From an uncultured Desulfobacteraceae bacterium (GTDB lineage Bacteria > Desulfobacterota > DSM-4660 > Desulfatiglandales > Desulfatiglandaceae): a stretch of DNA of 64,000 nucleotides. Every line of letters starts with the position of its first letter. The first letter of the stretch is position 1. Position numbers and translations under genes: made by a program. The DNA is taken from the NCBI GenBank assembly GCA_964588535.1, contig CAZPQA010000005.1:5177-69176 (forward strand), written 5' to 3'. This document shows, piece by piece, positions 1-20,300 of the stretch. The notes under the pieces were generated by a model, which searched no databases, was not told the DNA's origin, and was given only the letters and a program-made list of their open reading frames with translations.

Positions 1-739
1 TCTCTATGAAATTACATGGGGGGACAGGCCCCACATACTTCAATCTTGTCCTGCCGCCATATGTTTCGCTTAATTTATTGATCTGCCGATCAAAGCCTTT
101 TTCATTCTCTTTTTTGACCAGGAAAGCGCTGTTGGTAATCATCTGGTCGCCCATGGTATGATTTGTTTTTTGATCGGTCCATAACGCTTTGAAGCAGCCC
201 AGGATAGCTTTTTCTTCCTTTTCATTTTTCATCTCAAGGGCGTTTTTTACCATTTCGCCCAATTTAACCTGGTCCCGCTGTGTGCCGCCCCTTCTTGATT
301 TGAGTCGATCTCTTAACAGCCTGATTTCCTTGTTTTCACGAACGAGTTCGATGAACAAGGTTTCCTTGTCCGTCCACAGGGCTTTGAGACCCAGTTCGAC
401 CTTGTCTTCCACATAAGTCAAAAGCGCTTTCAATTCATCATAACGGGCCTTCAAGACCTTTTCTTTGATAACCTCAGCGTTTTCGCCGATGGTTCCGAAT
501 CTTACGGGCAGCATGGGATAATCTGCCATGGTCTCTTCCATCACTTTCTGATGGGCCATGGTATTTGTCCTGTTTACGGAATATTTGATATCGGGCGAAG
601 GACTGATAACGGCCCCTATGTCTCTGTAGCAGATGCTATAAACAGAATCTTCCCGGTCGCCGATCCCTTTTGAAGAGAAATGGCGTTCTTCATCTGCTTC
701 GATAATGCAATATAAATAGTTGCCTTCCTTTTCGGTCAT
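1..739 (-). CDS. GvpF/GvpL family gas vesicle protein (3' end truncated by window edge)
   Basis: Not in the ORF track. Manual translation from ATG 739 gives MTEKEGNYLYCIIE...LPVRFGTI...VELGLKALW...KYVGPVPPCNFIE, a paralog of 4049..4801. Confidence 0.9.
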   Translation of the reverse strand, partial: MTEKEGNYLYCIIEADEERHFSSKGIGDREDSVYSICYRDIGAVISPSPDIKYSVNRTNTMAHQKVMEETMADYPMLPVRFGTIGENAEVIKEKVLKARYDELKALLTYVEDKVELGLKALWTDKETLFIELVRENKEIRLLRDRLKSRRGGTQRDQVKLGEMVKNALEMKNEKEEKAILGCFKALWTDQKTNHTMGDQMITNSAFLVKKENEKGFDRQINKLSETYGGRTRLKYVGPVPPCNFIE

Positions 740-793
740 TAAGCGTTGCGCTCCTCTTCAGATTGTTACGCCCCGTGGACGTTTTATTGTCGC

Positions 794-1834
794 CTACATG
801 GCGGCGGCTTGCTCCACGGCTTTGATGCTGATCCAATTTCTGACATCCGCCTCTTTGAAAGAACAGGCATCATTCTGGCAATAGCCCGTAAGCTTTTGAT
901 AGGATTTTGTTATGTTTTCAAACCGCTTTTGAGCTTCGGGGTCATCCGGAAACTTGTCAGGATGGTATTTCTTACTGAGACCCCAGTAGACTTCTTTGAT
1001 TTCAGCAGCCGTAGATTGTTCTCCCATGCCCATGACGTCTTTCGCGTGGTTAATTTCTCCAAAATCCACTTTTGTGATTTCCAGTGTGCGAAAGCTGTAA
1101 GGCGGAAGCGGCCCTACAATCCTGAAATTGATTTTGTCCTGGTAGTGGCGGTCGAGCGCCTCCACCTTTTTTTCCAATGCTTCCTGTTTGTCCTGGTTGA
1201 TCAGGAACGCCCCGTTCACGATCATGGCATCATCCATGATGGCGTGAGAAATGTGGTCTTCCGCGTCTTTTTTCAGGGTGTCCACAATCAGGGAAGCGCA
1301 TTCTTTTTTCCTTTTGTCGAGAGATGCCTTCACCAGTTTGCCGACGCTTAACTTGACCTCAAAAACCTTATCATCGGGTTTTGAGGCGGCTTCTTTCTTC
1401 AATTTCCTGACGGCGTCCTCTTCCCCTATTTCTTTCAGGATTGATTCAAAATCGCTCCATACGGCTGCCACGTTCAACTCGATTTTACCTTCCATCTCCC
1501 CAAGATGTTTTTCGATGGGGTCACAGGCGGTTTCAAGAAGGTTTTTGAGATCATGTTCGCTTACAATCGTCCCATACTTGACGGGGATGATGTGACGATT
1601 TTTCATGATCCTTTCGATGATGGCTTGATAGATGGCCAGATTCTGGAGAAGAAGTTCTTTTGGGAGGGCGCTGAATTGTTTAAACGCCATATCGCCGGCT
1701 ACAGCCGCAATATTCCGGTATGGAAACAGAAATACTTCCCCCTGGTCAATCCCTACGAGGTTCAGGTTCCGGTCTTTCTCCGCGCGTACAAACCCGTATA
1801 TGAATTTTCCGTTTGTCGTCATTTTTTTTACCAA
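794..1834 (-). CDS. GvpF/GvpL family protein fused to a C-terminal J-domain
   Basis: GvpF/L motifs (FIYGFV, IPVKYG, VGPLPPYSF) are followed by EIKEVYWGLSKKYHPDKFPDDPEAQKRFENITKSYQKL, a J-domain with the HPD motif. Confidence 0.9.
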   Translation of the reverse strand: MVKKMTTNGKFIYGFVRAEKDRNLNLVGIDQGEVFLFPYRNIAAVAGDMAFKQFSALPKELLLQNLAIYQAIIERIMKNRHIIPVKYGTIVSEHDLKNLLETACDPIEKHLGEMEGKIELNVAAVWSDFESILKEIGEEDAVRKLKKEAASKPDDKVFEVKLSVGKLVKASLDKRKKECASLIVDTLKKDAEDHISHAIMDDAMIVNGAFLINQDKQEALEKKVEALDRHYQDKINFRIVGPLPPYSFRTLEITKVDFGEINHAKDVMGMGEQSTAAEIKEVYWGLSKKYHPDKFPDDPEAQKRFENITKSYQKLTGYCQNDACSFKEADVRNWISIKAVEQAAAM

Positions 1835-1846
1835 ACTGGTTAGTGA

Positions 1847-3988
1847 TCAGTTGTCGGTTGTAGGTGTTAGAGATTTCTTAAAGTGCTGGTTTGAAATTTT
1901 GAAATCAGCGTAGTCTTCTTTCCCGCTCTCGATGAATTCTCGTATGGCCATCATAGCGGCTTTTCTGCAAACCGATTCTATGTCAGAGCCCATGAGACCC
2001 TCTGTAGATTTGGCCAGAGATTCGAGATCAACGTTCGGTCCCAGGGGTTTATCTCTTGTGTGGACTTTGAATATCTCAAGCCTTGCCTTCTGGTCAGGGG
2101 CAGGAAGCTCTAAGTGAAAATCAAACCTGCCGGCCCTGAGTAACGCCTGGTCGATAATGTCGAGCCGGTTGGTCGCTGCTAAAACAACGATCCCTTTCAG
2201 CTCCTCAATACCATCCAACTCAGTCAGAAACTGGCTGATGACCCTGTCGACTACGTGGGATGCGGCCTCCGAACCTCTCCTTGGCACCACACTGTCTATC
2301 TCATCGAAAAAAATGATGCAGGGAGATGCCTGCTTGGCTTTTTTAAATACCTCACGGACACCTTTCTCACTCTCACCAACCCACTTTGATAGTATTTCCG
2401 GGCCTTTCACCGAAATGAAGTTTACCTCTGATTCTGAAGCCACTGCCTTGGCAAGCAACGTCTTTCCGGTACCGGGTGGACCATAAAGGAGTATCCCTTT
2501 GGAGGGACTTGTATTGGCATGCTCGAATAATTTGGCGTATTTCAAGGGCCACTCAATGGTCTCCATTAAAACCCTCTTTACTTCAGCAAGGCCTCCCACA
2601 TCGTCCCAACCAACGTCCGGGATTTCAGTGAATACCTCCCTGATGGCAGAAGGTTCCACCTCTTTTAATGCTTCAGTGAAATCGTCCATGGTGACCTGAA
2701 GGTTCATCAAATCTTCATAGGGGATCTCCTCAAGCTCAAAGTCGATATTGGGAAAAATCTTCCTGAGGGTTGTCATGGCTGCTTCACGGGAAAGGGCCTC
2801 GAGATCGGCCCCAACAAACCCATGGGTGATCTCTGAAAGACGAGCCAGTTCCACATCTTCCGCCAGAGGCATACCCCTTGTGTGTATATTGAGGATGTCT
2901 AAGCGTCCGTTTTTGTCCGGTATGCTGATCTGAATTTCACGGTCAAAACGGCCCGGCCTTCTGAGAGCCGGATCAAGGACATTGGGAATATTGGTGGCGC
3001 CTATCACAATGACCTGTCCCCTTGAAGAAAGCCCGTCCATCAGCGCCAGAAGCTGTGCCACCACTCGCTTCTCTACCTGCTTTTCGCCACCCATCTCCTC
3101 ACGCTTCGGGGCAATGGCATCAATCTCGTCTAAGAATATGATGCTTGGCGCATGCGCGGTGGCATCATCGAATATCTTCCTTACATTGGCCTCGCTCTGG
3201 CCGTAAAACTTGTTCATGATCTCGGGGCCGCTGATCTGCGCGAAATATGCGTCCGTTTCATTGGCGACGGCCCGGGCAATCAGGGTCTTGCCGCATCCTG
3301 GAGGGCCATGTAGAAGAACGCCCTTTGGCGGATCGATGCCCAGGCGTTCAAAGATCTGGGGGTATTTCAAAGGGAGTTCTATCATTTCACGGATGCGCCT
3401 GATTTCCTTGCCAAGACCCCCGATATCCTCATAGGCTATCCTGGTCCTGACCTCCCCGGGTTCCCCCTTCGCCTGGATCTTCATGACGGTCTTGGGGTGG
3501 ATCATCACCACACCCGAAGGCTTGGTCGATACGACATTGAAGTCCTGGGTCCTGGTCCCGAAAAGCCTTGCCCTCACAATGTCCCCTTCCACCAGAGGAA
3601 GACCCTCCAACAGACTCCCGATGTAGCGGGCATCATGAGAACGCATCACGGTCAAAGGAGCAACGACAATGCTTTGAGCCGGGTTGAACTCCATCTTTTT
3701 GACGTCAACCTTTTCATCAATACCGGTCTTGGCATTATCCCGGGTGATACCGTCCAGTCGAATCAACCCTTTGCCGCGATCCTCCATATAGGCGGGAAGG
3801 ACCTTGGCAACGGTTTCCCTCTTCCCCTGGATGGCAACGACATCCCCCACTTCAACACCTATCTTCCTGAAGTCAACAGGATCCAGCCGCACAATCCCCC
3901 GACCTACGTCCTTGGACCCGGCCTCGGCGACCTTCAAGGTGAGGGGTTTAGGCTTCTTTGCCTTTTGTGTCTTCTTGACAGAAGTCAT
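1847..3988 (-). CDS. cdc48: CDC48/VCP/p97-family AAA+ ATPase
   Basis: Cdc48 N-domain ([10 protein letters not shown]) plus two AAA modules ([16 protein letters not shown]; Walker B FLDEID/FFDEID; [12 protein letters not shown]). Confidence 0.95.
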
Positions 3989-4048
3989 AATTTTACCTTA
4001 CACGTTGCGGGTTTCTGCCCGCTGACCATTTCCCAATCATCAATCCGT

Positions 4049-4801
4049 TCACCATTTCACCACAATATTCACAAAGTTAAATGGGGGCACCGGGCCGACG
4101 TATTTGAATGTAGCCCGGTCATCATATTCTTTGCCGAGATCTTCCACCAAGAAGTCAAACTCTTTCTCCCTCGTTCTGTCTATGAGGAAAGCTGCATTTA
4201 AAAACATGCCGTCCCCAAACACGTCATTTACCTTGACGTCAATGGCGCTCCGTTTGAACACCTTGACGACAGACCGGGTTTCATCAACCTTTTTGTTTTC
4301 AAGGGCATCTTTTACCGCCTTACCCAGAGTGATCTTGAGGGTATTGTCGCCTTTCCCGGATTTTTCCTGTGCCTTCTTCTTGAGCTTTCTGATCTCCTTG
4401 TTCCCTTCTCCTATCTCTTGAAAGATCCGGCTCACATCTTTCCAGACTGCCTTCAGACCCATCTCCACCTTATTGTCCATATCTCTCAGGAGGCCCTTGA
4501 ATTCCGAATGTCGTCTTCTCAGGAGGCTTCGAACCTCTTCGACGCTGGCCGCGATGGTACAGAATCTCACCGGAAGTACCGTATAATCTTTCATCACTTC
4601 TTCGATGACCTTTTCATGGGCTGTCATGTTTTCCCTATTGATCACGTACTTTGCCATGGGTGAACTGCTGATGACAGCGCTGATATCGTTGAACCCGATG
4701 GTTGAGACGATATCCCCGCGCTGACCGATACCGATCGGTCCGAAATTCCGACCTCCGTTACTTTCAATAATACAGTAAACGTATTGTCCTTCTTTAGCCA
4801 T
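4049..4801 (-). CDS. GvpF/GvpL family gas vesicle protein
   Basis: Motifs YVYCII, AHEKVIEEVM, VLPVRF and YVGPVPPFNFVNI. Confidence 0.92.
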   Translation of the reverse strand: MAKEGQYVYCIIESNGGRNFGPIGIGQRGDIVSTIGFNDISAVISSSPMAKYVINRENMTAHEKVIEEVMKDYTVLPVRFCTIAASVEEVRSLLRRRHSEFKGLLRDMDNKVEMGLKAVWKDVSRIFQEIGEGNKEIRKLKKKAQEKSGKGDNTLKITLGKAVKDALENKKVDETRSVVKVFKRSAIDVKVNDVFGDGMFLNAAFLIDRTREKEFDFLVEDLGKEYDDRATFKYVGPVPPFNFVNIVVKW

Positions 4802-4835: not shown

Positions 4836-5756
4836 TCAACATACCTGATTAATCGTATCCATTATTGCCTGTCTGACTTCGCCTTCGGGTTGCCCTTTGA
4901 ACCCGTTTGAATCAAAGTTGAGGACATCCAGGCATGCATCAACGAAATCGCTGTCATCCGCTTGGGGGGTGGAACCGGTTGTACTCAATACCTTGGCGAT
5001 CATAATGCTTGCCCGGACACTGGGCTGAAGGCTATTTTCTCTCGTATCCCTGATAGAACGTACAAGATCCACCACTCTTGCGGTCTCAGCTTCAGGTAAC
5101 CCTGATTTTTCCTCGACAATGGAAGCCTCGCTTTCCCGGTCGTAGTGCCGCAGCCTGATTGTTATCATGCGGTCTTTCAGGGCATCCTGCGCCTTGTGCA
5201 CACCCGCATATTCCTCAGGATTGCTGGTAAAGATCGCTCGAAACTCCGGCGAGACTCGCAGATAACCATCTTCCCCCCGCGCCGCCGGGAGATCTAACAT
5301 CTTTTCCTCCAATATGGGGAGGAGTACATTATTGGCTTCCGGTCTGGAACGGGTGAATTCGTCATAGATAAGCGTGTATCCATGTTTGCATGCCACGGTT
5401 ACCCGGTTGTCCACCCATTCCGGAGAGACATTTTCCTCCGATTTCAGGACCGAATGGATAAAGTTATCCACCATTTTTTTCCTCCGGTAGCCGTACTGAC
5501 CACCGATCAGGTCGGAGGTGCCGAACTCATCGTCGCCGTGGATCAATATGACAGGCCGCCCGATCTGGGCCGCCAAATACATTCCCATGGTAGTCTTCCC
5601 AGTGCCTGCCGGTCCGCTGAGGTGGATGGGGAATCCCGCGTTCATGTAGGTCGCACCCCTCCTTAAGACCCCTTTGATGTAATCGGACTGAACGAATCCG
5701 GGCTGATCCTTATCAATGATAATAGGCGTTACTTCTGAGCTTCTTTCAGTTCCCAC
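4836..5756 (-). CDS. gvpN: Gas vesicle AAA ATPase GvpN (copy 2)
   Basis: GPAGTGKTT, DNFIHSVLK, YDEFTRSRPEANNVLL and TSNPEEYAGVH are GvpN hallmarks. Confidence 0.95.
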   Translation of the reverse strand: MGTERSSEVTPIIIDKDQPGFVQSDYIKGVLRRGATYMNAGFPIHLSGPAGTGKTTMGMYLAAQIGRPVILIHGDDEFGTSDLIGGQYGYRRKKMVDNFIHSVLKSEENVSPEWVDNRVTVACKHGYTLIYDEFTRSRPEANNVLLPILEEKMLDLPAARGEDGYLRVSPEFRAIFTSNPEEYAGVHKAQDALKDRMITIRLRHYDRESEASIVEEKSGLPEAETARVVDLVRSIRDTRENSLQPSVRASIMIAKVLSTTGSTPQADDSDFVDACLDVLNFDSNGFKGQPEGEVRQAIMDTINQVC

Positions 5757-5778
5757 CGCTATCCCCTTTCAAAGTTGG

Positions 5779-6963
5779 TCATTGCGTTAGTACGTCCTGC
5801 CCCTTTACACAACTTATGTTTTCAAATCCGTTATCTGCCTTGATCACATAGGTCATAATGGGAGTTCGGCCTCCGCGCTCTATGTTTCGAATCCGCATCT
5901 CTTCCCAGGGCTCCACTACAATTTTCCAGCCCTCATCCACCTCCGCTGATTTAACGATTCGACCCCCTTCCGCGATGGCATCTTCAAAGGTGTCCAGATC
6001 CTGGCGCGGCGAGTTCCTGAAATTTGACATTATATTCTTCAATATCAGCTCATTCCGGGTTTGCTCAAGAAACTCAGGGTTCCTGACCCTTTCATAGGAG
6101 GCGAGCATCAGATTATCATCAACGGTGGCCTCAAACACGGCGGGCGTCATTTCTCCGTTCTTCCGTCTCAGCCTCCGTTCTTCCCATGGCTCGATCAGAA
6201 TTTGACACCCGTCTTCCTGCCAGGTTATGTTTATGAATTCCCCTGTATCCGTAAGGGCGGTCTCAAGGAGGGCCTCGGCAGTTTCCGGGGGCACAGGCTT
6301 GGAGGCTGTCAGGAGGGCCCGCCCAAAGGATCTGAGGGCCTCTTCTAAAACTTCCCTCAGCTCACTGGCCCTTTTCGCTTCCATCTCCTTCCTCTCTTTT
6401 TCTGCCTCCTTTTTCTGTCTGAACTCTTCTGCATTTCGTTCAACAACAGACTTATCATCTTCTACGCTCCTACTACAGCCCAATGCCGCCGCCCACTCTC
6501 TTGCCATGATTTTGCGGGCTATAAGCGAAACCGAGGCAGGGTTCAAATTCTTAGGCTTCGTTTCAACCTTGCCCTGCTCTGATTCATATGGCTTCCAGTT
6601 AAATTCCCGGTTTGTCTCCGACTCTCTTTCAGAAGACCTGGATTCGCCCTCCGGACCAAATGCCCCGGGAATTGTCTTTGCAGCCACTTCATGGAAGACC
6701 GGCAATTCACCTCCGTTTTCTTCGTTTGATTCCGGGGTCCCTGTTTCGGGTTTTGCGGCCAGGACGTCGGCAGGTTTTTGCGAGGGGTCATCCGGGACCA
6801 ATGGATATACAGGGTCCTGTTTCTCCACTTCTTCCTGCCGCCTCCATTCCCGGGCCTCAGACTCGAGTGCAGATGTGGCCGGTCGGCTCGCCGCAAGACC
6901 CAAGGCGCATGCCCGCTCCATTGCTGCCAGTTTGCCTATGGATATGGTATTTCTGTCTTCCAT
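5779..6963 (-). CDS. Gas vesicle-associated protein with two C-terminal GvpO-like repeats and two N-terminal helical repeats
   Basis: Twin motifs EDGCQILIEPWEE...FEATVDDNL.LASYERV and DEGWKIVVEPWEE...YVIKADNG resemble the GvpO pattern GW.V.VE..E....YEV.LD. Operon context agrees. Confidence 0.5.
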   Translation of the reverse strand: MEDRNTISIGKLAAMERACALGLAASRPATSALESEAREWRRQEEVEKQDPVYPLVPDDPSQKPADVLAAKPETGTPESNEENGGELPVFHEVAAKTIPGAFGPEGESRSSERESETNREFNWKPYESEQGKVETKPKNLNPASVSLIARKIMAREWAAALGCSRSVEDDKSVVERNAEEFRQKKEAEKERKEMEAKRASELREVLEEALRSFGRALLTASKPVPPETAEALLETALTDTGEFINITWQEDGCQILIEPWEERRLRRKNGEMTPAVFEATVDDNLMLASYERVRNPEFLEQTRNELILKNIMSNFRNSPRQDLDTFEDAIAEGGRIVKSAEVDEGWKIVVEPWEEMRIRNIERGGRTPIMTYVIKADNGFENISCVKGQDVLTQ

Positions 6964-6966
6964 TGA

Positions 6967-7353
6967 TCACCCTTTCGCTGTGACAACGCCTTTTCCCCGG
7001 CACGCGGTACAGGGGAGCTTGTTATGGGGGTCTTTCCCCTTGCCCCGACACTTGGGACAGGGCTCAAGGGGCTCCTTCACGCTGACATGGCCTTTACCCC
7101 TGCATACGGTGCAGGTCAGATTGCTTCGGGGCTTCTCCTTTCCCGTTCCCCTGCAGTAGGCACATTCAATGGCCGGGGGCTGGACCGAAACATTACCGCT
7201 GCCGCCGCAAACAGAGCACCTCGATCCCTTTGGTTTTTCCCCTTTGCCCGCGCAAAAAGCGCAATCAAGCTTATTGCTGTTGCTTGAGACCTTTATCACC
7301 TCGGGCGGTTTATCTGCGCTTTCCTTAGTGCCCGACGACCATTTCCATTCCAC
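6967..7353 (-). CDS. Stand-alone DnaJ-type zinc-finger protein
   Basis: Six CxxCxGxG repeats and no J-domain. Confidence 0.85.
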   Translation of the reverse strand: MEWKWSSGTKESADKPPEVIKVSSNSNKLDCAFCAGKGEKPKGSRCSVCGGSGNVSVQPPAIECAYCRGTGKEKPRSNLTCTVCRGKGHVSVKEPLEPCPKCRGKGKDPHNKLPCTACRGKGVVTAKG

Positions 7354-7368: not shown

Positions 7369-7692
7369 TTAATATTCTATGGTCATTGTTTTCACCATCT
7401 TCTTCGTTTCTGAAATTTTTGAACGGCTCTGTTTTTCAGTTCTTAGATTGTAGTCTTTGGTTTCAGAGACGGTTTCCTGTAAATCCTGGAGTTCTTCGTC
7501 TATAAAAATGATATCTTTATCAACCTGTTCCTTTTTCTTTTCAATGTTTTCCATTTCCTGTTCCAGCCGCGCTTTGTTTTTCTCCAGGATAAACATCTCT
7601 AAGAATTCCGACCCTCGCACCTTTGGTTTGGATCGGATCTTGGCCCTTAAAGCCGTCTTGATATCAGAGACCGTGCGCCTTTTACTGCCCAT
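7369..7692 (-). CDS. GvpV-like small coiled-coil gas vesicle protein
   Basis: Basic N-terminus and an FLEMFILEKNKARLEQEM coiled coil; lies just downstream of gvpN as GvpV-type genes do. Confidence 0.55.
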   Translation of the reverse strand: MGSKRRTVSDIKTALRAKIRSKPKVRGSEFLEMFILEKNKARLEQEMENIEKKKEQVDKDIIFIDEELQDLQETVSETKDYNLRTEKQSRSKISETKKMVKTMTIEY

Positions 7693-7994: not shown

Positions 7995-8912
7995 TTAACA
8001 GTGCTTGTCAACCAATTCACCGATCACTTCTTTGACCCTGTCCTGATTGGTCTTGCTTCCGATGCGGCTGGTCTCCGAGGCCAATATGTCCATACAGGTC
8101 TGTCTGAAAACCGGATCATTTTTGTCCACCGGGGACTTTCGGACCTTGAGGGTCTTGGCAATCATGACGGAGCCCCTTATGGTTGGGGCAAATTCATAGA
8201 CGTCAGAATCCCTGAGGCCCCTGACGACCTTTACGATCTTTGAGGCATCACCATTTTCCAGGCCAGATTTGGATTCGGTGATACGGATCTCTGTCTCTTC
8301 GTCAAAATGCTCGAGATCCATGGTGATCATGCGGTCTCGAAGGGCGTCCTGACTGCGGTGCACACCGGCGTATTCCTCCGGATTGCTGGTAAAGAGGGCC
8401 GTAAAGTCCGGGTCCACCCTCAGATAGTTGCTGTCGCCCTCCCGTGCCGAAGGCAGGTCTAACATTTTCTCCTGAAGCACGGAGAGGAGCACATTATTGG
8501 CCTCCGGTCTTGAGCGGGTAAACTCATCATATATGAGTGTGAACCCGTACTTACAGGCAATTGTCAGACGGTTGTCCACCCACTTTTTTCTCATATCCTC
8601 CTCGGTCTTGAGCACCGAGTGGATGAAATTATCCACCACCTTGCGTATTTTATATCCATATTCGCCGCCAACCAGGTCCGATGTGGAAAACTCCTCATCC
8701 CCGTGGATCATGACCACCGGTCTGCCGATCTGGCTGGCCACATGCATGGCCATGGTGGTCTTGCCCGTCCCGGAAATCCCCCGGAAATGGAGAGGAAAGC
8801 CCGCCGCCACATAGCCCAGGGCCCTCTCGGTAATATCTTTTACAAACGGGGTTTCAACAAAGTTGGGCAGGGAACGCGGTTCCAACACGGTCGTTATTTC
8901 ATCTATCGACAT
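7995..8912 (-). CDS. gvpN: Gas vesicle AAA ATPase GvpN (copy 1)
   Basis: FVETPFV, GISGTGKTT, YDEFTRSRPEANNVLLSVL and TSNPEEYAGVHRSQDALRDR. Confidence 0.96.
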   Translation of the reverse strand: MSIDEITTVLEPRSLPNFVETPFVKDITERALGYVAAGFPLHFRGISGTGKTTMAMHVASQIGRPVVMIHGDEEFSTSDLVGGEYGYKIRKVVDNFIHSVLKTEEDMRKKWVDNRLTIACKYGFTLIYDEFTRSRPEANNVLLSVLQEKMLDLPSAREGDSNYLRVDPDFTALFTSNPEEYAGVHRSQDALRDRMITMDLEHFDEETEIRITESKSGLENGDASKIVKVVRGLRDSDVYEFAPTIRGSVMIAKTLKVRKSPVDKNDPVFRQTCMDILASETSRIGSKTNQDRVKEVIGELVDKHC

Positions 8913-9012: not shown

Positions 9013-9366
9013 CTACTTCTTAGTAATGACTCCCCCGCCTCTACATTTGAGACAGGGGAGGTAATCACCGGCAAGGACGCCCTTGCCCTTGCAGTCTGGG
9101 CACGTCTCAATCGGTTCCTTTACTCCCATTATTCCTTTTCCACCGCATACATCACACGTCAGTCGCTGGTCGCGGTGAACGCCGGTCCCTCCGCAAAAAA
9201 TACAACGGATGGCAGGCGCAGGGACAGACACCTCTTTACGACCACCACAAACCTGGCATACAGAGACCTTGGACAAGAGTCCAAACGGATCGACTCCCTC
9301 TCCCTTGCAAAAGGCACATGTGGCGATGACCTTTCCCCCTTCTCCTTTTATTACTTCGACGCTCAT
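9013..9366 (-). CDS. Stand-alone DnaJ-type zinc-finger protein
   Basis: Six CxxCxGx(G/K) repeats; paralog of 6967..7353. Confidence 0.85.
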   Translation of the reverse strand: MSVEVIKGEGGKVIATCAFCKGEGVDPFGLLSKVSVCQVCGGRKEVSVPAPAIRCIFCGGTGVHRDQRLTCDVCGGKGIMGVKEPIETCPDCKGKGVLAGDYLPCLKCRGGGVITKK

Positions 9367-11280: not shown

Positions 11281-11916
11281 CTACCCACTAACCCCCGCCA
11301 CCGATTGCCATTGGCCCTGGACCCTGGTCCTGACCACATCAAACTCATCCAGCATCTTAGTCAAATCAGCGTCACGATCACCCTGCTGGACCCTCAGAGA
11401 CTTGATCATGACCCTGAAGTCTTTGACCTTGACCCCTTCTCCTTTTTCCAAAAGACTCCTGAGGGCGATCCTCAGATCCTCCTGCTCGATCTGCAACCGT
11501 TTCATGGCCGTGATGATGTTCTTCTCGCGCTCTTTCTGACGTCGCGAGATATCTTCCTTAATGGCGGCCATATCTCCCAGGGTTGAGCCGCTCCCGCCGA
11601 GCACAATCTTCCTGAGCCGGCCGATCATCTCCCCTTCTTCTTCCTGGAAGATCTGAAGGCCCTCCCTTGTCTCTTTCTCAGTCTGATGGCGGCGTTCGAT
11701 CACATCACCGATCATACGGTCAAAGTCCTTTTTCCTCAGGCTTTCCGCCCTGGCGAGATTGTCCCTCAGCCGAACGATCATGTCTTCGAGTTCCATCTGA
11801 AAACCCTTGAGGAATTGATATGCCTGGTCCATCAGGCCGTTCACCGTCCTCACCCGCATTTCATAGGAATCGATAATGCTGTTAGCAAGCGCCTTTAAAT
11901 CTTCTCCTGTTCCCAC
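11281..11916 (-). CDS. Coiled-coil gas vesicle-associated protein; N-terminus resembles the GvpC-like protein
   Basis: EDLKALANSIIDSYEMRV aligns with DDLGRLAQEVANAYEERI of the next gene. GAGGTG SD. Confidence 0.65.
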   Translation of the reverse strand: MGTGEDLKALANSIIDSYEMRVRTVNGLMDQAYQFLKGFQMELEDMIVRLRDNLARAESLRKKDFDRMIGDVIERRHQTEKETREGLQIFQEEEGEMIGRLRKIVLGGSGSTLGDMAAIKEDISRRQKEREKNIITAMKRLQIEQEDLRIALRSLLEKGEGVKVKDFRVMIKSLRVQQGDRDADLTKMLDEFDVVRTRVQGQWQSVAGVSG

Positions 11917-12147: not shown

Positions 12148-12351
12148 TTACGCTGTAGCAGTGAGTCCAATGGCTTCGGCATATTTCAGGAATGTCTCAA
12201 CGCCGGCCACAACCACTCTGGCCTCAACAGCGAGTAACTCGATGCCCACGAGGGAAACCCTGACCCACGCGTCCACGACCACGCCCTTGTCCAGAATTCT
12301 GTCCACCACTTCTACCAAACTTGAAGATGCTATCGCTTTTTCTACGGCCAT
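12148..12351 (-). CDS. gvpA: Gas vesicle structural protein GvpA
   Basis: [63 protein letters not shown]. Confidence 0.98.
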
Positions 12352-12426: not shown

Positions 12427-12630
12427 TTACGCGGTGGCGGTCAGTCCAATGGCTTCTGCATATTTCAGGAAAGTCTCGACACCGGCGACCACGACCCTGG
12501 CTTCAATGGCGACCAGCTCGATGCCCACGAGGGAAACCCTGACCCACGCGTCCACGACCACGCCCTTGTCCAGAATTCTGTCCACCACTTCTACCAAACT
12601 TGAAGATGCAATTGCTTTTTCTACGGCCAT
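12427..12630 (-). CDS. gvpA: Gas vesicle structural protein GvpA (tandem copy, 2 aa different)
   Basis: Canonical GvpA sequence; AGGAGG SD. Confidence 0.98.
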
Positions 12631-12806: not shown

Positions 12807-12824
12807 TTGCACTTTGTGTGCCAA
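12807..12824 (-). promoter_or_regulatory. Sigma54 (-24/-12) promoter of the gvp operon
   Basis: Minus strand reads TTGGCACACAAAGTGCAA (GG-N10-GC), about 180 bp upstream of gvpA. Confidence 0.75.
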
Positions 12825-12981: not shown

Positions 12982-14814
12982 TCAGGGGGAGGAAACTCGC
13001 TCCCGCAACTGGAACTGAAACCGCCACCGATGAAGGCTTCGGGTGGATTTGCACCACAGGGCCAGGGTGCCCACTTCCGTGTAATGGGCAGCCACTTTCA
13101 CCGGAATAGAAACCCCTTTGGATTTCTTGCCGAATTTGATGACCGTATGAAGCGGCGGAAGGGGGGTGAGGGAGTCATCCACCCGCACAATGTCGCCCAC
13201 CCGGTCGCCGCTGCGATAACTGGAACTGTACAGGTAGAATCGCACCGGCTGGTTGGTCAGAACCGTGAATTTTTTTTCACCGAGTTCGTTTTGGGTTCCC
13301 TCGCTCATGCCGCGTTCCATCAGACAGAGTGCCGATTCAGGGGCATGGTTCGGGGCTTTTCCCGTTCCTTGGGCGTTTCCCAGGTATACCCCCAGATAGT
13401 AGGCCCTTGCACTGCCGCTGTTCACCTGCACCCCGTACCCTTTTCGAACCCGGCCGTAATAGGATGCCCCCAGGGCCACGGCAAGATCCAGCTCCGGATT
13501 TACCAGCACCCTTGGCGCGGTTTTTTCTGTTTCATGAAACCGGGTGCAAACCGCTGCTCTGATCCTGTCCTGGATGGAAGCGGGTTTGAGGGCCGCTCCA
13601 TTAAACATGATCAGATCAGGTGCAATTTTTTCCCTGCCCAGCCGCTGTTTGAGGTCGTCTCCATGTTGTTCCAGAAATCGGATCATGTGCCGGGTAATGG
13701 CGGGATCCTGGGCATAGGGGAGCCCGAATTCGGTGATCCCCCGGCGTGTTTTTAGAGCGACGGATTCTTCGGGGGAAACCAGGGGAAAAAATCCGTCCAG
13801 GATGACGTCTTCCACATCCGAACGATCGAGTTTCGCGGACATTGTATCGGCGATCAGTTTTCGGCCTCCGCCGATTAGGGTGATGGTCTTTTCTTCCGTC
13901 AGCTCCCCCAGGATCTCTTCTTTGGCCCGGCGGCACTGATTGCAGAGGGACTGCCGGCGATCCGTGCTCAAATGCCCTTTCCGGGCTCCCTTTAGACGGC
14001 TTTCCATGAGATGGGCCAGGGCCAGGTCCATGTTGTCTCCGCCGAGAATCAGGTGATCGCCCACGGCGATGCGTTCAAACCCGGGCTTTCCGTTTCTCTC
14101 ACAAAGGGTAATGAGGGTGAAGTCCGTGGTTCCGCCGCCCACGTCGCAGATCAGGATCAGCTCACCGGGCTTCACAAGGCGGTCCCATTCCCGGTCATGC
14201 TCATCCAGCCAACTGTAAAAGGCGGCCAGGGGTTCTTCCAGAAGGGTAATGTTGTTGATGCCGGTCCGAGATGCCGCTTCCACGGTCAGGTCCCGGGCCA
14301 CTTCGTCAAAGGAGGCGGGTACCGTGATCACCACGGCCTGGTTTTCCAGGCAATGGGCTTCTTCCCTTTTCACGCTGTGGTTCCAGGCGTTTTTGATATG
14401 GTTCAAATAGGCGGCGGTGACCGCAATGGGAGACTGCTTTTCCACCGGGTCATCCGCGGCCCACGGCAGGATTTGCGCTCGGCGATCCACTTTTTCGTGG
14501 CAGAGCCAGCTTTTGGCCGAAGCCACCATGCGCTTGGGGACTTTTACCCCCTGCTCCCGGGCGAGAATTCCGGCAAAGCCCTTTTCGTCGGTATCCCAGG
14601 GTAGTTTCCAGGCTTCTTTTTTCAGCTCGTGTTCACCGGGCACATAGAGAAACGAGGGGAGCACTTTACGCTTTGATATTTCACCCGGGCCTGTCAGTTG
14701 GGCAATGTCAAACCTTTGGATGGGGACTTTGGATGGGTCCTGATGTCCGGATAAATCAACATAGGTGACTGCGGAATTGGTTGTGCCCAGATCAATTCCG
14801 ATAATATATTTCAT
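12982..14814 (-). CDS. Atypical Hsp70-family protein, C-terminally truncated paralog of 26650..29451
   Basis: GIDLGTTNS, TVPASFD, EEPLAA, DVGGGTTD and GGDNMD motifs. Ends right after WRFQFQLR, where the paralog continues for about 320 aa. Confidence 0.88.
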   Translation of the reverse strand: MKYIIGIDLGTTNSAVTYVDLSGHQDPSKVPIQRFDIAQLTGPGEISKRKVLPSFLYVPGEHELKKEAWKLPWDTDEKGFAGILAREQGVKVPKRMVASAKSWLCHEKVDRRAQILPWAADDPVEKQSPIAVTAAYLNHIKNAWNHSVKREEAHCLENQAVVITVPASFDEVARDLTVEAASRTGINNITLLEEPLAAFYSWLDEHDREWDRLVKPGELILICDVGGGTTDFTLITLCERNGKPGFERIAVGDHLILGGDNMDLALAHLMESRLKGARKGHLSTDRRQSLCNQCRRAKEEILGELTEEKTITLIGGGRKLIADTMSAKLDRSDVEDVILDGFFPLVSPEESVALKTRRGITEFGLPYAQDPAITRHMIRFLEQHGDDLKQRLGREKIAPDLIMFNGAALKPASIQDRIRAAVCTRFHETEKTAPRVLVNPELDLAVALGASYYGRVRKGYGVQVNSGSARAYYLGVYLGNAQGTGKAPNHAPESALCLMERGMSEGTQNELGEKKFTVLTNQPVRFYLYSSSYRSGDRVGDIVRVDDSLTPLPPLHTVIKFGKKSKGVSIPVKVAAHYTEVGTLALWCKSTRSLHRWRFQFQLRERVSSP

Positions 14815-14817
14815 GAA

Positions 14818-16650
14818 TTATTCGATCTCTTTTTCTCTGACATTGAATTCAAGCTTGAACTTTTTTTCGTCCTCCCGGGAAACGCACCACAGTTCCAGGG
14901 TGCCCACCTCCGTGACCCGGGTTTCGAGGGTTACCGGGACAATGGCGCCGGTTTCGCCTTCCAGCCGGGTTTCGAGGGTCGTGATCGGTTCAATTTCTCC
15001 TTTCCAGTCTTCCGTTACCGATCCCATGACATCGCGGCGGCGGGTGTTGGATCCAAGGAAGTCAAACTTGACCGGTTCGCCCACCACCAGTCCGAATTCC
15101 TTGCCGGGCAGGTCGGCTTCGGTCCCTTCTTCCATGCCGAAAGGGGCCACGCACAGGGCTTTGATGGGGGTGGGAATACCCGGTACCGCTGGCAAAGCCG
15201 CCTCCACGCCGATGTAATACGTTTTGGCAAGGCCGCCGCGAATGCGAACCCCTTTTCCTTTTCGGGCCAGGCCATAATAGGCGGCGCCCCGGGCCACGGC
15301 CAGGTCGAAATCTCCGGTTTTGATTTCCCTGGGGGCGGTCTGGTTTTCCACGGCGGACCAGGATGAGAGGATGTCCAGCACCCGGTTCCTCAATCCTTGG
15401 GCCTTCATGACGCCACCGTTGAAAAGGACGGCGGTGGGGCAGATAAAGTCATTGCCCGTTGTTTCGGAAGGATCCCCTTGATCCAGGAATTGTGCCAGAT
15501 GATGGGTAATGGCCGGGTCCGATGTGTAGGAAAGCCCCATTTCCCTCATCCCTGTCCGGCGTTGCTCCCGGGGACGTGAATCGTGCCCGCACTCGGGGAA
15601 AAATCCGGTTTCCAGGACCGTTTTAACCTGATCTCGCGTCAATTCGGTCTTGACAGTACCGCCGATGAGCTTGCTTCCCCGGCCCAGGATGGTGATGGGA
15701 TAAGAATCGGCCGCTTCGTTGGAAAATAGATGTTCTTTGGCCCCGCGGCAGGCATGACACAATCCTCTCATCTGATAGGCATCCAGCTTTTGTCCCTTGG
15801 TGGCCAGATTTCCGGCCACGGCGTAAGCCAGGGTCAAGTCCATATTATCCCCGCCCACCAGCAGGTGCTGTCCCACCGATACCCGTTCCAGGTTTAAGTT
15901 TCCTTGTGTTTCCGTGACCTTAATCAGGCTGAGGTCTGTGGTGCCCCCGCCCACGTCCGCCACCAGTATGCGGTCGTTCACCTTGACCCTGTCCCGCCAT
16001 TTGCCCCGGGTGCCGTCAATCCAGGCATAGAATGCCGCCTGGGGTTCCTCAAGCAGTGTGGCTTTTGGAAAGCCGGCCATTTCGGCGGCCTTGACGGTCA
16101 GGTTCCGGGCCACTGCATCGAAGGAAGCGGGAACGGTCAGATAAACCTCCTGGTTTTCCAGGCGCAGTCCATCGTCTTCCCGGGCCATGTAATGGTTCCA
16201 GCTCTCCCTGATGTGTCTCAGGATAGCCGCCGAAGCTTCTACAGGGGAGAGTTTTTGCCGGTCATCGGGGCCTTCCCATGGGAGAATCGCTTTGTTTCGA
16301 TCCACGCCGGTGTGACAGAGCCAGGATTTGGCGGAGGCGATCATGCGCATGGGAATTTCAGCCCCCCGGTCCCGGGCAAAAGCCCCCACGGCCAGGGTGC
16401 TTTCCGGGTCCCATGGCAGGGCCAGTCCACCTTCCGGCACATCATGGGGACCCGGCAGCAGCAAGAAAGAGGGCAGGGTGCTTTGTTCCCCCAGAGAGCC
16501 GGATGCCACCAGTTGAGGGATGTTGAAAATTCGAATGTCAAGCTCCGTTAGATCATCATACCGGGCTTCCGTGTAGGCGACAACGCTGTTGGTGGTGCCC
16601 AGGTCGATGCCTATCACATAGATGGGATCAGCTTTGGTTTCATTTGTCAT
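14818..16650 (-). CDS. Atypical Hsp70-family protein (short type)
   Basis: GIDLGTTNS, TVPASFD, EEPQAA and DVGGGTTD motifs; ends LELWC...KLEFNVRE. Confidence 0.9.
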   Translation of the reverse strand: MTNETKADPIYVIGIDLGTTNSVVAYTEARYDDLTELDIRIFNIPQLVASGSLGEQSTLPSFLLLPGPHDVPEGGLALPWDPESTLAVGAFARDRGAEIPMRMIASAKSWLCHTGVDRNKAILPWEGPDDRQKLSPVEASAAILRHIRESWNHYMAREDDGLRLENQEVYLTVPASFDAVARNLTVKAAEMAGFPKATLLEEPQAAFYAWIDGTRGKWRDRVKVNDRILVADVGGGTTDLSLIKVTETQGNLNLERVSVGQHLLVGGDNMDLTLAYAVAGNLATKGQKLDAYQMRGLCHACRGAKEHLFSNEAADSYPITILGRGSKLIGGTVKTELTRDQVKTVLETGFFPECGHDSRPREQRRTGMREMGLSYTSDPAITHHLAQFLDQGDPSETTGNDFICPTAVLFNGGVMKAQGLRNRVLDILSSWSAVENQTAPREIKTGDFDLAVARGAAYYGLARKGKGVRIRGGLAKTYYIGVEAALPAVPGIPTPIKALCVAPFGMEEGTEADLPGKEFGLVVGEPVKFDFLGSNTRRRDVMGSVTEDWKGEIEPITTLETRLEGETGAIVPVTLETRVTEVGTLELWCVSREDEKKFKLEFNVREKEIE

Positions 16651-16812: not shown

Positions 16813-18261
16813 TTATGGAGAAAGCCCGTGTGCCTTGATCTTCCTGAGGAGGGTTTTGTAGTCAACCTGGAGTTTCCGGGCCGCCTGGCTTTTGTTCCCG
16901 TTTGCCTCCTCTAAAACCTTTCCGATGATTTGTTTCTCGACGGCCTCCACATGGGCGTTGACGATTTCCTTGAGTGGTTTGTCGCCATCAGGGATTGTTC
17001 CCGAAACACCCGGATTTCCGGTTCCTGAGATGGATTTCTGATCGCCGAACATCAAGTGCCGTCTCTCGATGCGGGCATTTTCTTCACAAAGGAGCACGGC
17101 CTGGCGGATCACGTTTCGCAGCTCGCGCACATTTCCAGGCCAATGATAGATATTCAGAGCGAGCAGGGCTTCCTTGGAGAACCCACCGCACTTCCTGCCC
17201 AGTTCCATCTCGACTTCATCCACGAATTTCTTGGCCAGATAAGGAATATCCTCCGACCTTTCTTTGAGAGATGGCATTTTCAGGGAAAATTCGTTCAGCC
17301 GAAAGTACAGATCGGATCTGAAATTTCCTGATTTCACATCCCTTTCCAGGGACTGGTTGGTGGCGGCAATGATTCGGACATTTACGGGCACGGATTTTTT
17401 GCCGCCCAGTCTTCTGATCTTCCGTTCCTGAATCGCCCGAAGGAGTTTCTGCTGCACGGTATAGGGAAGGTTTCCCACTTCGTCCAGGAAGAGCGTCCCG
17501 GTATGGGCCAGTTCGAAATGGCCCGGTTTGTTTTTGTCTGCGCCGGTAAACGTGCCTTTCATGTAGCCGAACAGCTCGCTTTCAACCAGCGTTTCGGGTA
17601 TGGCACCGCAGTCCAGGGCCACAAAAGGCCCATCCTTTACGTGGCTCAGATTGTGGATGGCGCGGGCGATGAGCTCCTTGCCCGTACCGCTCTCTCCTCC
17701 TACGAGAACCGTGAACAGGGTGGGCGCTACCTTTTCCACATGCCGAATCAGTTTTTTGATGGGGTCGCTGTTTCCCATCAGTTTGTAAAGGAAGGTTCGT
17801 TCATTCAGAACCGTTCTCAGATATTCCACTTCCTGCACCAGGTTCTGTTTTTCCAGGGCCCGCTTGATGGTGAAAAGGAGATCGTTGTTGTCCACGGGTT
17901 TTGTAATGTAATCGTACATGCCCATCTTCATGGCCGTGACCGCCGAATCGATTTTCCCATAGGCGGTGACCATGATGATGGGCACCGCCGGTATTATCCG
18001 CTTCATTTCTGCCGCTACCGTTAATCCGTCCTGCCCGGGCATACGGTGGTCCAAGAGCACCAGATTGGGAATGTCTTTTTCCAGAAAGTCCAGTGCTTCA
18101 CGGCCGTTCCGGGCTTTAATGACGCGGTATCCGGCGGCATTCAAAATGTTTTCTGTGGCCCATCGAAAGTCGTGGTCGTCGTCCACCAGAAGTATTTTGA
18201 TTTTGGGTTCGATTTCCGGTTCAATGCTCATGGTTGTGTCCCTAACATGTTGGAATGGCAT
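16813..18261 (-). CDS. Sigma54-dependent NtrC-family response regulator
   Basis: REC domain (LVDDD, LLDHRMPG), AAA domain (GESGTGKE, ESELFG..KGTFTGA, WPGNVREL) and Fis-type HTH. Confidence 0.95.
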   Translation of the reverse strand: MPFQHVRDTTMSIEPEIEPKIKILLVDDDHDFRWATENILNAAGYRVIKARNGREALDFLEKDIPNLVLLDHRMPGQDGLTVAAEMKRIIPAVPIIMVTAYGKIDSAVTAMKMGMYDYITKPVDNNDLLFTIKRALEKQNLVQEVEYLRTVLNERTFLYKLMGNSDPIKKLIRHVEKVAPTLFTVLVGGESGTGKELIARAIHNLSHVKDGPFVALDCGAIPETLVESELFGYMKGTFTGADKNKPGHFELAHTGTLFLDEVGNLPYTVQQKLLRAIQERKIRRLGGKKSVPVNVRIIAATNQSLERDVKSGNFRSDLYFRLNEFSLKMPSLKERSEDIPYLAKKFVDEVEMELGRKCGGFSKEALLALNIYHWPGNVRELRNVIRQAVLLCEENARIERRHLMFGDQKSISGTGNPGVSGTIPDGDKPLKEIVNAHVEAVEKQIIGKVLEEANGNKSQAARKLQVDYKTLLRKIKAHGLSP

Positions 18262-18408
18262 GTTAAATCAGTCTATAGCGAGGAGCAAAAGATAGGGGGA
18301 TGCTACTCCGGTTGAACGGAGAATGTCAAGGGGAGATCCGAGAAATCGCCAGGTGAAACATCCCAATGGATCGACCGCTGGTGTTGATTAAGGAGAATCC
18401 CGGCGGCG

Positions 18409-19113
18409 TTACGCCTGCCTGTGGCGGGGTTCGGAAAGGACTTCTCTCACGGGGGTAATCATGTAGGCTGCCAGTTTTTCGAATTTTTCCACGGGCCCCC
18501 GTGCGTTTAATGTTTTGAAATAGTCCTGTACTTTCTTGATGTTTTTTATTTCAATGATTTCAATATCGTCTGCAAGATAAGGGCGCACATGATGGTAGGC
18601 GCCCATGAAAAGCACCCCTTTGTTTTTGAGGGTTTCATTGATGCTTTTGGCAACGAATCTGTCTCTTTCCTCCATCAACCGATCTCCATCAAATTCATTC
18701 TGTATTTCGGAGGTATTTTTTTCCAGTGCTGAATCAGCCTGGACAAGCTGGAGTATTCGTTGCAGCTCCATTTTAAGCAGTTTAATGTTTTCGGTTTTTT
18801 TAATCGTTCCGCCCCTGTTGATTAAATCAAGGACAATTTGATAATTGCTGCTTCCCCTTTTGGCCCCTTCGCGGATGATCTTATGTCCCAGTTCATCTTC
18901 GGTCATCAGACCATCCTGGTATATTGAAAGGCCCTCGGGATCGAGTTTGTTGAAAAATTTTCTGATGTTTTCCCAAAAGACCGTCACGATTTCGTGATGT
19001 CTCTCCCACAGCGCGCGTCCACACGTTTCCCCGCTTTTCTTCTGGATGGATGCGGCTGCGCTTCCCAAATCAGATTCCTCATGAATCACAGGAACGTAAA
19101 ACAGCTTTCTCAT
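18409..19113 (-). CDS. Hypothetical protein, possibly TraB/ChaN-like fold
   Basis: Motifs YVPVIH, IYQDGL, ERDRFVAKSINETL and GVLFMGAYH. The fold is an inference. Confidence 0.55.
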   Translation of the reverse strand: MRKLFYVPVIHEESDLGSAAASIQKKSGETCGRALWERHHEIVTVFWENIRKFFNKLDPEGLSIYQDGLMTEDELGHKIIREGAKRGSSNYQIVLDLINRGGTIKKTENIKLLKMELQRILQLVQADSALEKNTSEIQNEFDGDRLMEERDRFVAKSINETLKNKGVLFMGAYHHVRPYLADDIEIIEIKNIKKVQDYFKTLNARGPVEKFEKLAAYMITPVREVLSEPRHRQA

Positions 19114-19199
19114 TGCAGAATAGCCCTTTATGAATTGATGGTTGCTGGTTTAATAAAACGCGGCCCGTAAATGAGGGTCCAAGGCCAAACGACAAATGA

Positions 19200-20300
19200 T
19201 CAACGATCGTTACCCACCGCAATTTTAATTTCCAACATCCCATTCTTATAAGACCAGGTCATCTGATCGTCCTTTGCTTCGCGGGAGAGGAGAATCTCTT
19301 TTTGATATTTCCTGTTCTTGCCTTCAGCGTTGATATTCAGGATGTCTCCCTTGATTTCAAGCTGAACATCCTTTTCATCGATCCCCGGCATTTCGGCCAC
19401 CACATTAATCTCTTCCGGTTCCTCAAAGATGTCCACGATCGGTTCACGCACCTCTTCCACCACCGGGCCTTTGGGCGTCTTTTTGATATTCCCGAAGGGT
19501 TGAACCGACGGACTGCCGTCGGCCATGGTGCGGACCCTCACACCGTAGACCCCTTTCAGGTCTTTGAGCCCTTTGATCTTGTTAAGTCCACTGAAGTCAA
19601 TTTCGCCCGATTTGGATAGCGCTTCGCCCTTTTCCGCCAGTTTTGAAGCCGTGTCGATAAGGTCGCCCAGCCCTTTAAAAAGGCCTCCAAGACCAAAATC
19701 CACATTTACCCCTGTTTTTTTCTCATCCATGTCTGTTCCCTCCTGTTTTGATTGTTTAGAACCTGTATTCTTTTTCTCCTGTTTACTTATTTCCCAAACC
19801 CCCTCTCTTTCCGTGCAGTTCAGATCGTTTGCTTCAAGAATTGCTTTCAGCCCTTTTACCAGACCGTATCCGGCCAGACTCGAAAGAACAGGGACGGCGC
19901 TCACAACGGATGTGGACAGATTTAATGATGCGCCCGCGATGGTTCCCAGGCCGGCCAGGATGCCCGCAGGCGTAAGGGTCTTCACCATATGGGCGGCAGC
20001 GGCGCTCGAAAAATCATCGGGGTTTTCCCCGATCTCATTCATGAACAGGGTGAAATGATCCCTGTCTTTTTCAGACAGTGCTCGAAATTTGGATATGCCG
20101 ATCAGTTGAATGGCTTTCAGTCGATTCAAAAGGTCCTCCGAGGGGAAGGTCTGTCCGGCTTCGATCCTCATGACCGTACTTCGAGATACGCCGAGTGTTT
20201 TTGCAAGGTCCGCCATGGACATGCTGCCGAATTTCTGGCGTAGTTCTTTGAGGACACTTCCACAGTTTTCACGGGTAACCCATTGGGGCATTTTTTTCAT
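19200..20300 (-). CDS. XRE-HTH domain fused in frame to an archaeal-type Hsp20/GvpH-like domain (internal start at 19730)
   Basis: HTH: MSMADLAKTLGVSRSTVMRIEAG. Alpha-crystallin domain: REPIVDIFEE...VVAEMPG...YKNGMLEI. AGGAGG SD precedes MDEKK. Confidence 0.8.
   Translation of the reverse strand: MKKMPQWVTRENCGSVLKELRQKFGSMSMADLAKTLGVSRSTVMRIEAGQTFPSEDLLNRLKAIQLIGISKFRALSEKDRDHFTLFMNEIGENPDDFSSAAAAHMVKTLTPAGILAGLGTIAGASLNLSTSVVSAVPVLSSLAGYGLVKGLKAILEANDLNCTEREGVWEISKQEKKNTGSKQSKQEGTDMDEKKTGVNVDFGLGGLFKGLGDLIDTASKLAEKGEALSKSGEIDFSGLNKIKGLKDLKGVYGVRVRTMADGSPSVQPFGNIKKTPKGPVVEEVREPIVDIFEEPEEINVVAEMPGIDEKDVQLEIKGDILNINAEGKNRKYQKEILLSREAKDDQMTWSYKNGMLEIKIAVGNDR

Follow-up and report, generated by a model that had tools for sequence, protein, structure and literature searches.

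Gas vesicle (gvp) genes and genes for chaperone-type proteins lie together in a 64,000-nucleotide stretch of DNA from an uncultured Desulfobacteraceae bacterium (contig CAZPQA010000005.1, here C5, positions 5177-69176), referred to below as the window; the source contig extends 5 kb further past its left edge. An original prediction had described the region as a gas vesicle locus with a dedicated chaperone line, and the genes it listed are real, lying on the minus strand at the places it gave, as open reading frame (ORF) calls and Pfam and NCBI profile searches demonstrate. In the reading direction the order is a helix-turn-helix (HTH)-Hsp20 fusion, a protein of 234 amino acids (aa), NtrC, two atypical Hsp70s (a, then b), two copies of gvpA, a 211-aa protein, a repeat protein, the zinc protein Zn117, gvpN, a 107-aa protein, the zinc protein Zn128, a 394-aa protein, a further gvpN, gvpF, cdc48, the fusion gene gvpF-J and another gvpF. 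Judged by genes alone, the gas vesicle set is satisfied, with gvpA, N and F/L accompanied by G, J, K, O and L on C5 outside the window. The notion of a dedicated chaperone line is borne out for Hsp20, Cdc48 and GvpF-J, but falls for the Hsp70 pair and for a split DnaJ. A synteny check gave a similar partition, Cdc48, Hsp20 and GvpF-J being syntenic with gvp genes and the Hsp70 pair not so at the level of the phylum.

In GvpF-J (794-1834; ATG at 1822, 342 aa) a GvpL/F domain (PF06386, E 2e-48) is followed by a C-terminal J-domain (887-1039; PF00226, E 5e-12) with its HPD at 956-964, and this covalent link to GvpF ties recruitment of Hsp70 to a Gvp protein. The fusion is a real, conserved family. 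Homologues at E 1e-20 or better number 204, both Pfam domains occur in 118 of the 120 listed, and among the 75 of those 120 that were aligned the HPD is invariant (75/75), at a mean column identity of 59%. The AlphaFold model (predicted local distance difference test, pLDDT, 90) is matched by Foldseek to solved GvpF (6l5d, 4qsg) and to J-domains, and the J fold with HPD places the protein among the class C J-domain proteins. Among 401 genomes sampled from the phylum, GvpL/F is carried by 35, counted here as gvp genomes, of which 13 have GvpF-J; a contig search with a single GvpF-J query returned 79 matches to ordinary J-domains besides 1 true homologue. A plasmid of Octadecabacter arcticus carries GvpF-J together with Hsp20, the J-domain going unmentioned in the available text of the genome paper (PMC3646047). 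A distant, shorter form (306 aa, 25% identity), possibly a separate acquisition, lies upstream of a cluster type that otherwise has no J-domain in G230 (L272:6163-7083) and G342 (L282:10014-10934). Two gvpF/L paralogues accompany the fusion in the window, one at 4049-4801 (PF06386, E 2e-61) and one at 2-739 (E 3e-58), which runs off the window and is whole at C5:5160-5915 (251 aa).

The cdc48 gene (1847-3988) encodes a Cdc48/VAT-type AAA+ ATPase with an N-domain and both AAA rings, their Walker A/B motifs, aromatic pore loops and Arg fingers intact, and it is the only copy that tblastn found in the genome. With two candidates scored per genome, Cdc48 is present in 29 of the 35 gvp genomes versus 16 of the 366 others, although these counts span related genomes, so that Fisher values overstate the association. 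The gene lies inside the cluster in 27 of the 35, and in 26 of 32 metagenome loci of at least 8 kb (among 80 fetched). No HbYX-like C-terminus is shared by 63 Cdc48 copies, which gives no sign of proteasome coupling. A single 892-aa ORF in G465 (L262:9075-11753) joins Cdc48 to GvpL/F, a sole case that could be an artefact. Hsp20 stands immediately before cdc48 in 16 of 20 J-less clusters. In the window it is part of a fusion of an XRE-type HTH to an archaeal-type Hsp20 (19200-20300; PF13560 and PF00011), also found in G003, G004, G009, G010, G048, G083 and G084; as the same Hsp20 is free (~180 aa) and directly before cdc48 in G024 and many metagenome loci, it has moved and become fused in this lineage, where it might be a stress-sensing regulator. 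Hsp20 and Cdc48 are the common core, GvpF-J is an add-on and a private DnaK a further add-on.

A conserved 234-aa protein (18409-19113) belongs to both J-type and J-less clusters (14 of 20 of the latter). Its residues H11, E108, E116, R150, D151 and H174 are invariant, 18 of 37 family members give weak TraB_PrgY_gumN matches (best E 0.001), and the predicted structure is closest to ChaN (Z 9.0, root-mean-square deviation 4.4, 159 aligned; Foldseek E 0.11). It is predicted to be a conserved, added cluster member of TIKI/TraB/ChaN fold, plausibly a TIKI-type hydrolase and as such a candidate protease.

The private DnaK lies in the tail of the cluster, beyond the window. In addition to the gvp genes named above, this part of C5 carries a third zinc protein and a small Hsp20-like gene, and the contig breaks off within a long gvpJ. 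Where the contigs of relatives reach further, gvpL and the long gvpJ are followed by a kinase, a regulator, a DnaK (~570 aa), a fusion with an Hsp20 domain, tandem ArsA and a second NtrC; the same genes occur in this genome (G000) on C239, C214 and C8, with DnaK on C239/C214. Here gvpJ, dnaK and arsA are each split over adjacent contig ends. This cluster DnaK is additional to two housekeeping DnaKs (on C33 beside grpE, and on C15) and to an ordinary dnaJ on C23.

The cluster DnaK is the likely partner of the J-domain of GvpF-J. Composed of a nucleotide-binding domain, a linker and a substrate-binding domain (SBD), with Geobacillus DnaK as its best solved relative, it keeps the hydrophobic linker and R167, N170 and T173 (E. 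coli DnaK numbering, counted on the alignment), residues that the available text of PMC4022485 connects with DnaJ binding or stimulation; residue 170 is D or S in a few distant copies, and the motif was not located in L166. It lacks a 24-residue insert found in all 16 housekeeping copies, and a quick, unrooted tree, from which one long row (G009hk3) was excluded, places 18 cluster and 16 housekeeping copies on opposite sides of one branch with support 94. Positions 404, 429 and 436 were mapped by motif. All 17 cluster DnaKs scored have E or Q at the arch residue 404, where 15 of 15 housekeeping ones have L, and at the pocket residue 436 M occurs in 14 of 16 cluster copies and V in 16 of 16 housekeeping copies. 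DnaKs have M or L at 404, and V436M gives HscA a shallow pocket (PMC8215388, available text). With a degenerate GrpE loop besides, the cluster DnaK departs from DnaK norms in all of these (M/L at 404, the V436 pocket, the GrpE loop), which suggests that it is specialised as HscA is. Among profile models the G009 copy passes NF001413 (702, cut-off 648) and stays below TIGR02350 (687 versus 823); the cluster DnaK also falls below both main HscA models (555 versus 709; 552 versus 620), and the F at the A429 arch position is likewise not found.

Because the cluster DnaK of this genome is split over two contigs, the proteins of G009 were used to model the complex. With ATP and Mg included, the J-domain and cluster DnaK of G009 gave a score of 0.68, the best control reaching 0.00, with 93% contact agreement between runs, partner pLDDT of at least 76 and the HPD placed on the linker; the mark applied to the score is reached by 116 of 157 solved pairs and 2 of 215 mismatched pairs. 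In the phylum sample, where many contigs are short, 6 of the 13 J-bearing clusters viewed contain a DnaK and none of the 20 J-less ones does; it is also seen in G190, assigned to neither group. It is found in all 11 J-type family relatives whose contigs reach its position (G002, G003, G004, G008, G009, G010, G017, G024, G048, G083 and G084). Position 26 of the J-domain is W in most family members, not K or R (positions 26 and 27 being assigned by motif). A pairing of W26 with H217 of DnaK was considered and is kept as a lead only, being confounded by lineage: R26 occurs with H217 in G009, G024 and L121.

These genes might alternatively be a kit for stress or dormancy in general, regulated together with the vesicles by the same sigma-54 and two-component signals and not directed at Gvp proteins. 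Archaea pair Hsp20 with Cdc48 in the heat-shock response, and the Hsp20 here is of archaeal type; Cdc48 also occurs in the 16 genomes without gvp, and many response regulators and kinases lie within the cluster. Such a kit would not, however, account for a J-domain covalently attached to GvpF, for the interleaving of cdc48 among gvpF genes in nearly all clusters and the GvpL/F fusion of G465 (single case), or for a DnaK pocket that is specialised and not generalist, and the explanation is considered unlikely.

The two Hsp70s between ntrC and gvpA had been proposed as the partners of the J-domain, with the zinc proteins as the detached zinc finger of DnaJ. Homology points elsewhere: the pair, a (14818-16650, 610 aa) and b (12982-14814, 610 aa), is most likely a truncated piece of a widespread DUF2760/Hsp70/Hsp70-DUF3731 cassette and a probable passenger. 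PF00012 covers only the N-terminal half of each (approximately residues 125-345, E ~1e-18). Hsp70 b, of DUF3731 type, is 73% identical to a full-length, 933-aa Hsp70-DUF3731 at 26650-29451 (PF12531, E 5e-88), the gene after DUF2760 (29472-30275; PF10816, E 3e-52), which is the first cassette gene. In relatives the order DUF2760, a, b is intact, and the pair is 60-80% identical to its members in the same a-b order; in the window the pair (12982-16650) is without DUF2760 upstream and without the DUF3731 tail, both of which lie 10 kb away at 26650-30275. Hsp70 b ends where the tail would start, and since no DUF3731 remnant follows the stop, an assembly error was rejected as the cause of the truncation. 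Both G000 and G004 have an extra tail-less copy upstream of gvpA. The stretch that separates the gvp region from the DUF2760 cassette holds a Phd/PIN toxin-antitoxin pair (25761-26569), additional PIN- and PemK-like genes were recognised by eye at 34886-36509, and a TumE-family gene is present within the cluster tail (L215:303-728); these toxin-antitoxin-type genes point to mobile insertions in the vicinity of the rearranged cassette.

A partnership of this pair with GvpF-J finds some footing in position, as all or part of the cassette is located no more than ~10 kb upstream of gvpA in G000, G004, G009, G010 and G048 (two genera; not in G003, G022, G024, G083 or G084), and in the Pfam label DnaJ_CXXCXGXG that the zinc proteins receive. 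The docking surface argues otherwise. In 18 of 18 a/b proteins T/L-L/I-L/I-E-E-P-Q/L replaces the R167-I-I-N170-E-P-T173 of E. coli DnaK and the hydrophobic linker is absent, so that J-docking residues, linker and canonical SBD, which define a DnaK, are all lacking. Co-occurrence with gvp is also wanting outside the family: DUF3731 is found in 46 of the 401 genomes (0 of the 34 other gvp genomes versus 45 of the 366 non-gvp genomes) and overlaps with GvpL/F only in this genome, ~3.8 overlaps being expected by chance. Within the family, 15 of 27 genomes with DUF3731 have no GvpF-J-cluster match, and the pair occurs in 0 of the 32 metagenome loci, only ~10 of which reach upstream of gvpA. Because a sigma-54 motif separates the pair from gvpA, the two need not be transcribed together.

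The zinc proteins add to the case against the same proposal. Zn128 (6967-7353, 128 aa) and Zn117 (9013-9366, 117 aa, directly upstream of gvpN) align as CxxCxGxG zinc-finger proteins with six motifs each, versus four in DnaJ, in a spacing that would resemble three tandem knuckles; Zn128 matches PF00684 and an Anti-TRAP motif. They adjoin gvpN; 11 of the 20 J-less clusters have them, and the J-bearing G024, G266 and G323 do not. No match to DnaJ_C, the C-terminal substrate-binding domain of DnaJ, was obtained among the cluster proteins scanned, sequence within contig gaps being out of view. The number of motifs, the missing DnaJ_C and the lack of co-occurrence with the J-domain speak against a class A DnaJ split into parts; an adaptor of GvpN or a small holdase is the better guess. 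Altogether, the view that the atypical Hsp70s and detached zinc fingers serve the J-domain is highly improbable. The third six-motif zinc protein (L243:2545-3693, on C5 outside the window) is embedded in a 382-aa basic protein with winged-HTH-like segments seen by eye, and an AbrB-like 144-aa gene and a double-zinc-ribbon gene lie near it.

The reading favoured here is that Hsp20, Cdc48, GvpF-J and the divergent DnaK probably keep shell proteins soluble and clear failed assemblies, the Hsp70 pair likely having no part in this. In a first step the GvpF domain would bind a monomeric GvpA-family protein, as expected from haloarchaeal and Bacillus GvpF, for which binding to monomeric GvpA has been demonstrated (PMC7688916, PMC11445434, available text); the accessible portion of PMC9501494 proposes GvpF as a GvpA chaperone and reports that it binds monomeric GvpA, not the shell. 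The fused J-domain, its HPD intact and its docking on the cluster DnaK predicted, would next recruit and activate Hsp70 through the HPD, the partner being the cluster's own DnaK where present, as here, and otherwise the housekeeping DnaK. With its changed arch, pocket and GrpE loop, the cluster DnaK would then act as a specialised Hsp70 in the manner of HscA. Aggregated Gvp proteins would be held by Hsp20 and extracted or unfolded by Cdc48, both of which are linked to gvp genes by observation and given these activities by presumption, and the TIKI-fold protein, a possible hydrolase, might act alongside both.

Expression of the shell genes likely depends on NtrC and sigma-54. Upstream of gvpA copy 1 (12427-12630; PF00741) and copy 2 (12148-12351; NF006874, above cut-off), and downstream of the Hsp70 pair, lies a sigma-54 -24/-12 promoter-like motif (12808-12823), and the NtrC-type sigma-54 activator at 16813-18261, identified by profile match, is the likely gvpA regulator. 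Such a motif precedes gvpA in 11 of 25 relatives tested (of which G266 and L143 may be one organism) versus 0-3.6% of shuffles, and many relatives likewise have an NtrC homologue ahead of gvpA. Scans for sigma-70 promoters and terminators returned chance levels only.

A number of observations weigh against this reading. The join C5-C239-C214-C8, which brings the DnaK into the cluster of this genome, rests on split genes and on the gene order of relatives, with sequence overlap only between the C214 and C8 ends (21 nt). When the long row G009hk3 is included, the DnaK tree requires two changes. The complex model does not establish that the cluster DnaK is preferred to housekeeping DnaK, and as DnaK-J complexes are already solved (e.g., 5nro), its pass may reflect likeness to them. 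Many J-bearing clusters lack the private DnaK (e.g., G495, L124, L138, L141, L157, L174 and L175), which is seen in only 4 of the 32 metagenome loci, many of which are cut short; in J-bearing clusters it is optional. Octadecabacter arcticus, a gas-vesicle maker, has neither cdc48 nor dnaK in the 25 kb viewed. For the Hsp70 pair, the cassette or a part of it stands upstream of gvpA in 5 of the 10 family genomes with upstream DNA visible, it abuts ntrC in G009 and G010, with DUF2760 overlapping the ntrC stop in G010, and DUF3731 occurs in 12 of 18 family genomes with a cluster match versus 15 of 87 others. This family-level synteny of cassette and gvpA is probably local and inherited, and a lineage-specific co-option of the pair may have taken place.

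The main task of the line could also be the disassembly and recycling of vesicles by Cdc48, DnaK and the TIKI-fold hydrolase. The intact aromatic pore loops of Cdc48 would suit this, as would the predicted TIKI/ChaN-fold protein, with its conserved His, Glu and Arg, that accompanies the cluster; model clusters, moreover, make vesicles without these genes, going by the gene lists seen in PMC9501494. Most of the genes, however, share the run of assembly genes that follows gvpA, as would suit a role in building, the TIKI fold match is moderate (Z 9.0) and carries no evidence of activity, and GvpF is reported to bind monomeric GvpA and not the shell (PMC9501494, available text). Disassembly as the chief function is thus rather doubtful. 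Solubility and clearance during assembly, as favoured above, can be extended to a bolder and distinctly tentative proposal, namely that the cluster encodes a third specialised prokaryotic Hsp70 machine, alongside HscA/HscB and HscC/DjlC. GvpF-J as adaptor and a co-evolved, GrpE-independent DnaK with an HscA-like pocket (W26 facing H217) would together feed GvpA to the growing shell, and a dedicated line of Cdc48, Hsp20 and a TIKI protease would disassemble and recycle vesicles.

The remaining genes of the cluster are vesicle genes or conserved proteins of less certain role. Both copies of gvpN, copy 1 at 4836-5756 and copy 2 at 7995-8912, score above the TIGR02640 cut-off. Next to copy 1 lies the 394-aa protein (5779-6963), with no family match, homologues in G002, G004, L103 and L108 and a repeated C-terminal domain; only some relatives have this pair (4836-6963). 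The conserved 107-aa protein after gvpN (7369-7692), also with no family match, has homologues in most J-type clusters, and the conserved 211-aa protein after gvpA (11281-11916) in the clusters of relatives. A helical-repeat protein (9521-11116), with repeats evident in its translation and no family match, may be GvpC-like by position and repeats. In the tail, a ~300-aa protein after the cluster dnaK (L215:1076-1963 on C214 of G000; L001:4098-5024) has a C-terminal Hsp20-like domain (NF041800, E 8e-9), while its N-terminal part, with no Pfam match, is by eye like the tail of the long GvpJ. A response regulator conserved within the cluster across the family (L216:1347-1967 on C239 of G000) carries a GYF_2-like segment at its N-terminus (E 8e-4). 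Genes of ~120 aa, which we take to resemble four-helix-bundle intervening-sequence proteins, are repeatedly inserted between gvp genes in G024, G017 and G022 (L012, L019, L015).

The solubility and insertion of GvpA and the removal of vesicles are questions that this chaperone kit addresses. Heterologous expression of gas vesicles is limited by proteotoxic stress (PMC12848028, available text), and detectable vesicles in E. coli were obtained from only 5 of 15 clusters tried (PMC10344784, available text). A natural fusion that joins a GvpA binder and a J-domain, accompanied by a DnaK and a Cdc48 of the cluster's own, is directly testable, and as the cultured gas-vesicle maker Octadecabacter arcticus 238 carries GvpF-J, the adaptor can be tested now. 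The genes offer parts for the engineering of acoustic reporters and give a bacterial Cdc48 a definite client; if the third-machine proposal were true, they would form an organelle-specific proteostasis system, portable to engineered cells to raise vesicle yields. A J-fusion, Cdc48 or DnaK in gvp clusters is not described in the open literature searched, subscription papers and some supplements lying outside its reach. The main text and files searched of PMC10344784 (files 13-22 outside the search) contain no dnaK, dnaJ, cdc48 or hsp20, the available supplement of PMC10410713 contains no gvp term, and the accessible portions of PMC4390858, PMC12739157 and PMC12848028 hold nothing bearing on J-fusion, DnaK or Cdc48. 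No paper on DUF3731 or DUF2760 emerged from the literature search.

Among known systems, the closest include the gvp clusters with arsA and hsp20 of Polaribacter irgensii, Pelodictyon luteolum and Geobacter uraniireducens (PMC2963123), which share Hsp20, the tandem ArsA-type ATPase and GvpL/F paralogues with the present one, and the gvpH/gvpZ/gvrA of Serratia 39006 (gene list of PMC9501494, available text). The claim that Hsp20 is absent from model clusters does not survive this comparison, Hsp20 and ArsA in gvp clusters being already published there, with a chaperone role presumed for Hsp20 (Castillo and Saier, 2010). In contrast, Cdc48, the J fusion, the private DnaK, the six-motif zinc proteins and the TIKI-fold protein, all present here, are unmentioned in the available text of that paper. 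The DUF2760/DUF3731 cassette (PF10816, PF12531), intact in relatives, is broken up here, with a and tail-less b beside gvpA and the rest 10 kb away. By comparison with archaeal Cdc48/VAT (TIGR01243) and Hsp20 (NF041800), Cdc48 is a member (961 bits, cut-off 803) and Hsp20 falls just below the cut-off (134 versus 140); unlike its archaeal counterpart, this Cdc48 is bacterial and lies within a gvp cluster. HscA/HscB and HscC/DjlC (PMC8215388, available text) offer the likeness of a dedicated Hsp70 with a client-binding J-protein, and the cluster DnaK is like HscA in its short tail, in having no grpE gene and in Met at 436, yet it is DnaK-derived and has no HscC-type L1,2 insertion when set against Geobacillus DnaK. 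Finally, GvpF of Halobacterium and of Bacillus pNL29 has the same fold (Foldseek E 4e-16) and the same PF06386 domain as GvpF-J, which differs in its C-terminal HPD J-domain, an addition that would couple the binding of GvpA to ATP-driven Hsp70.

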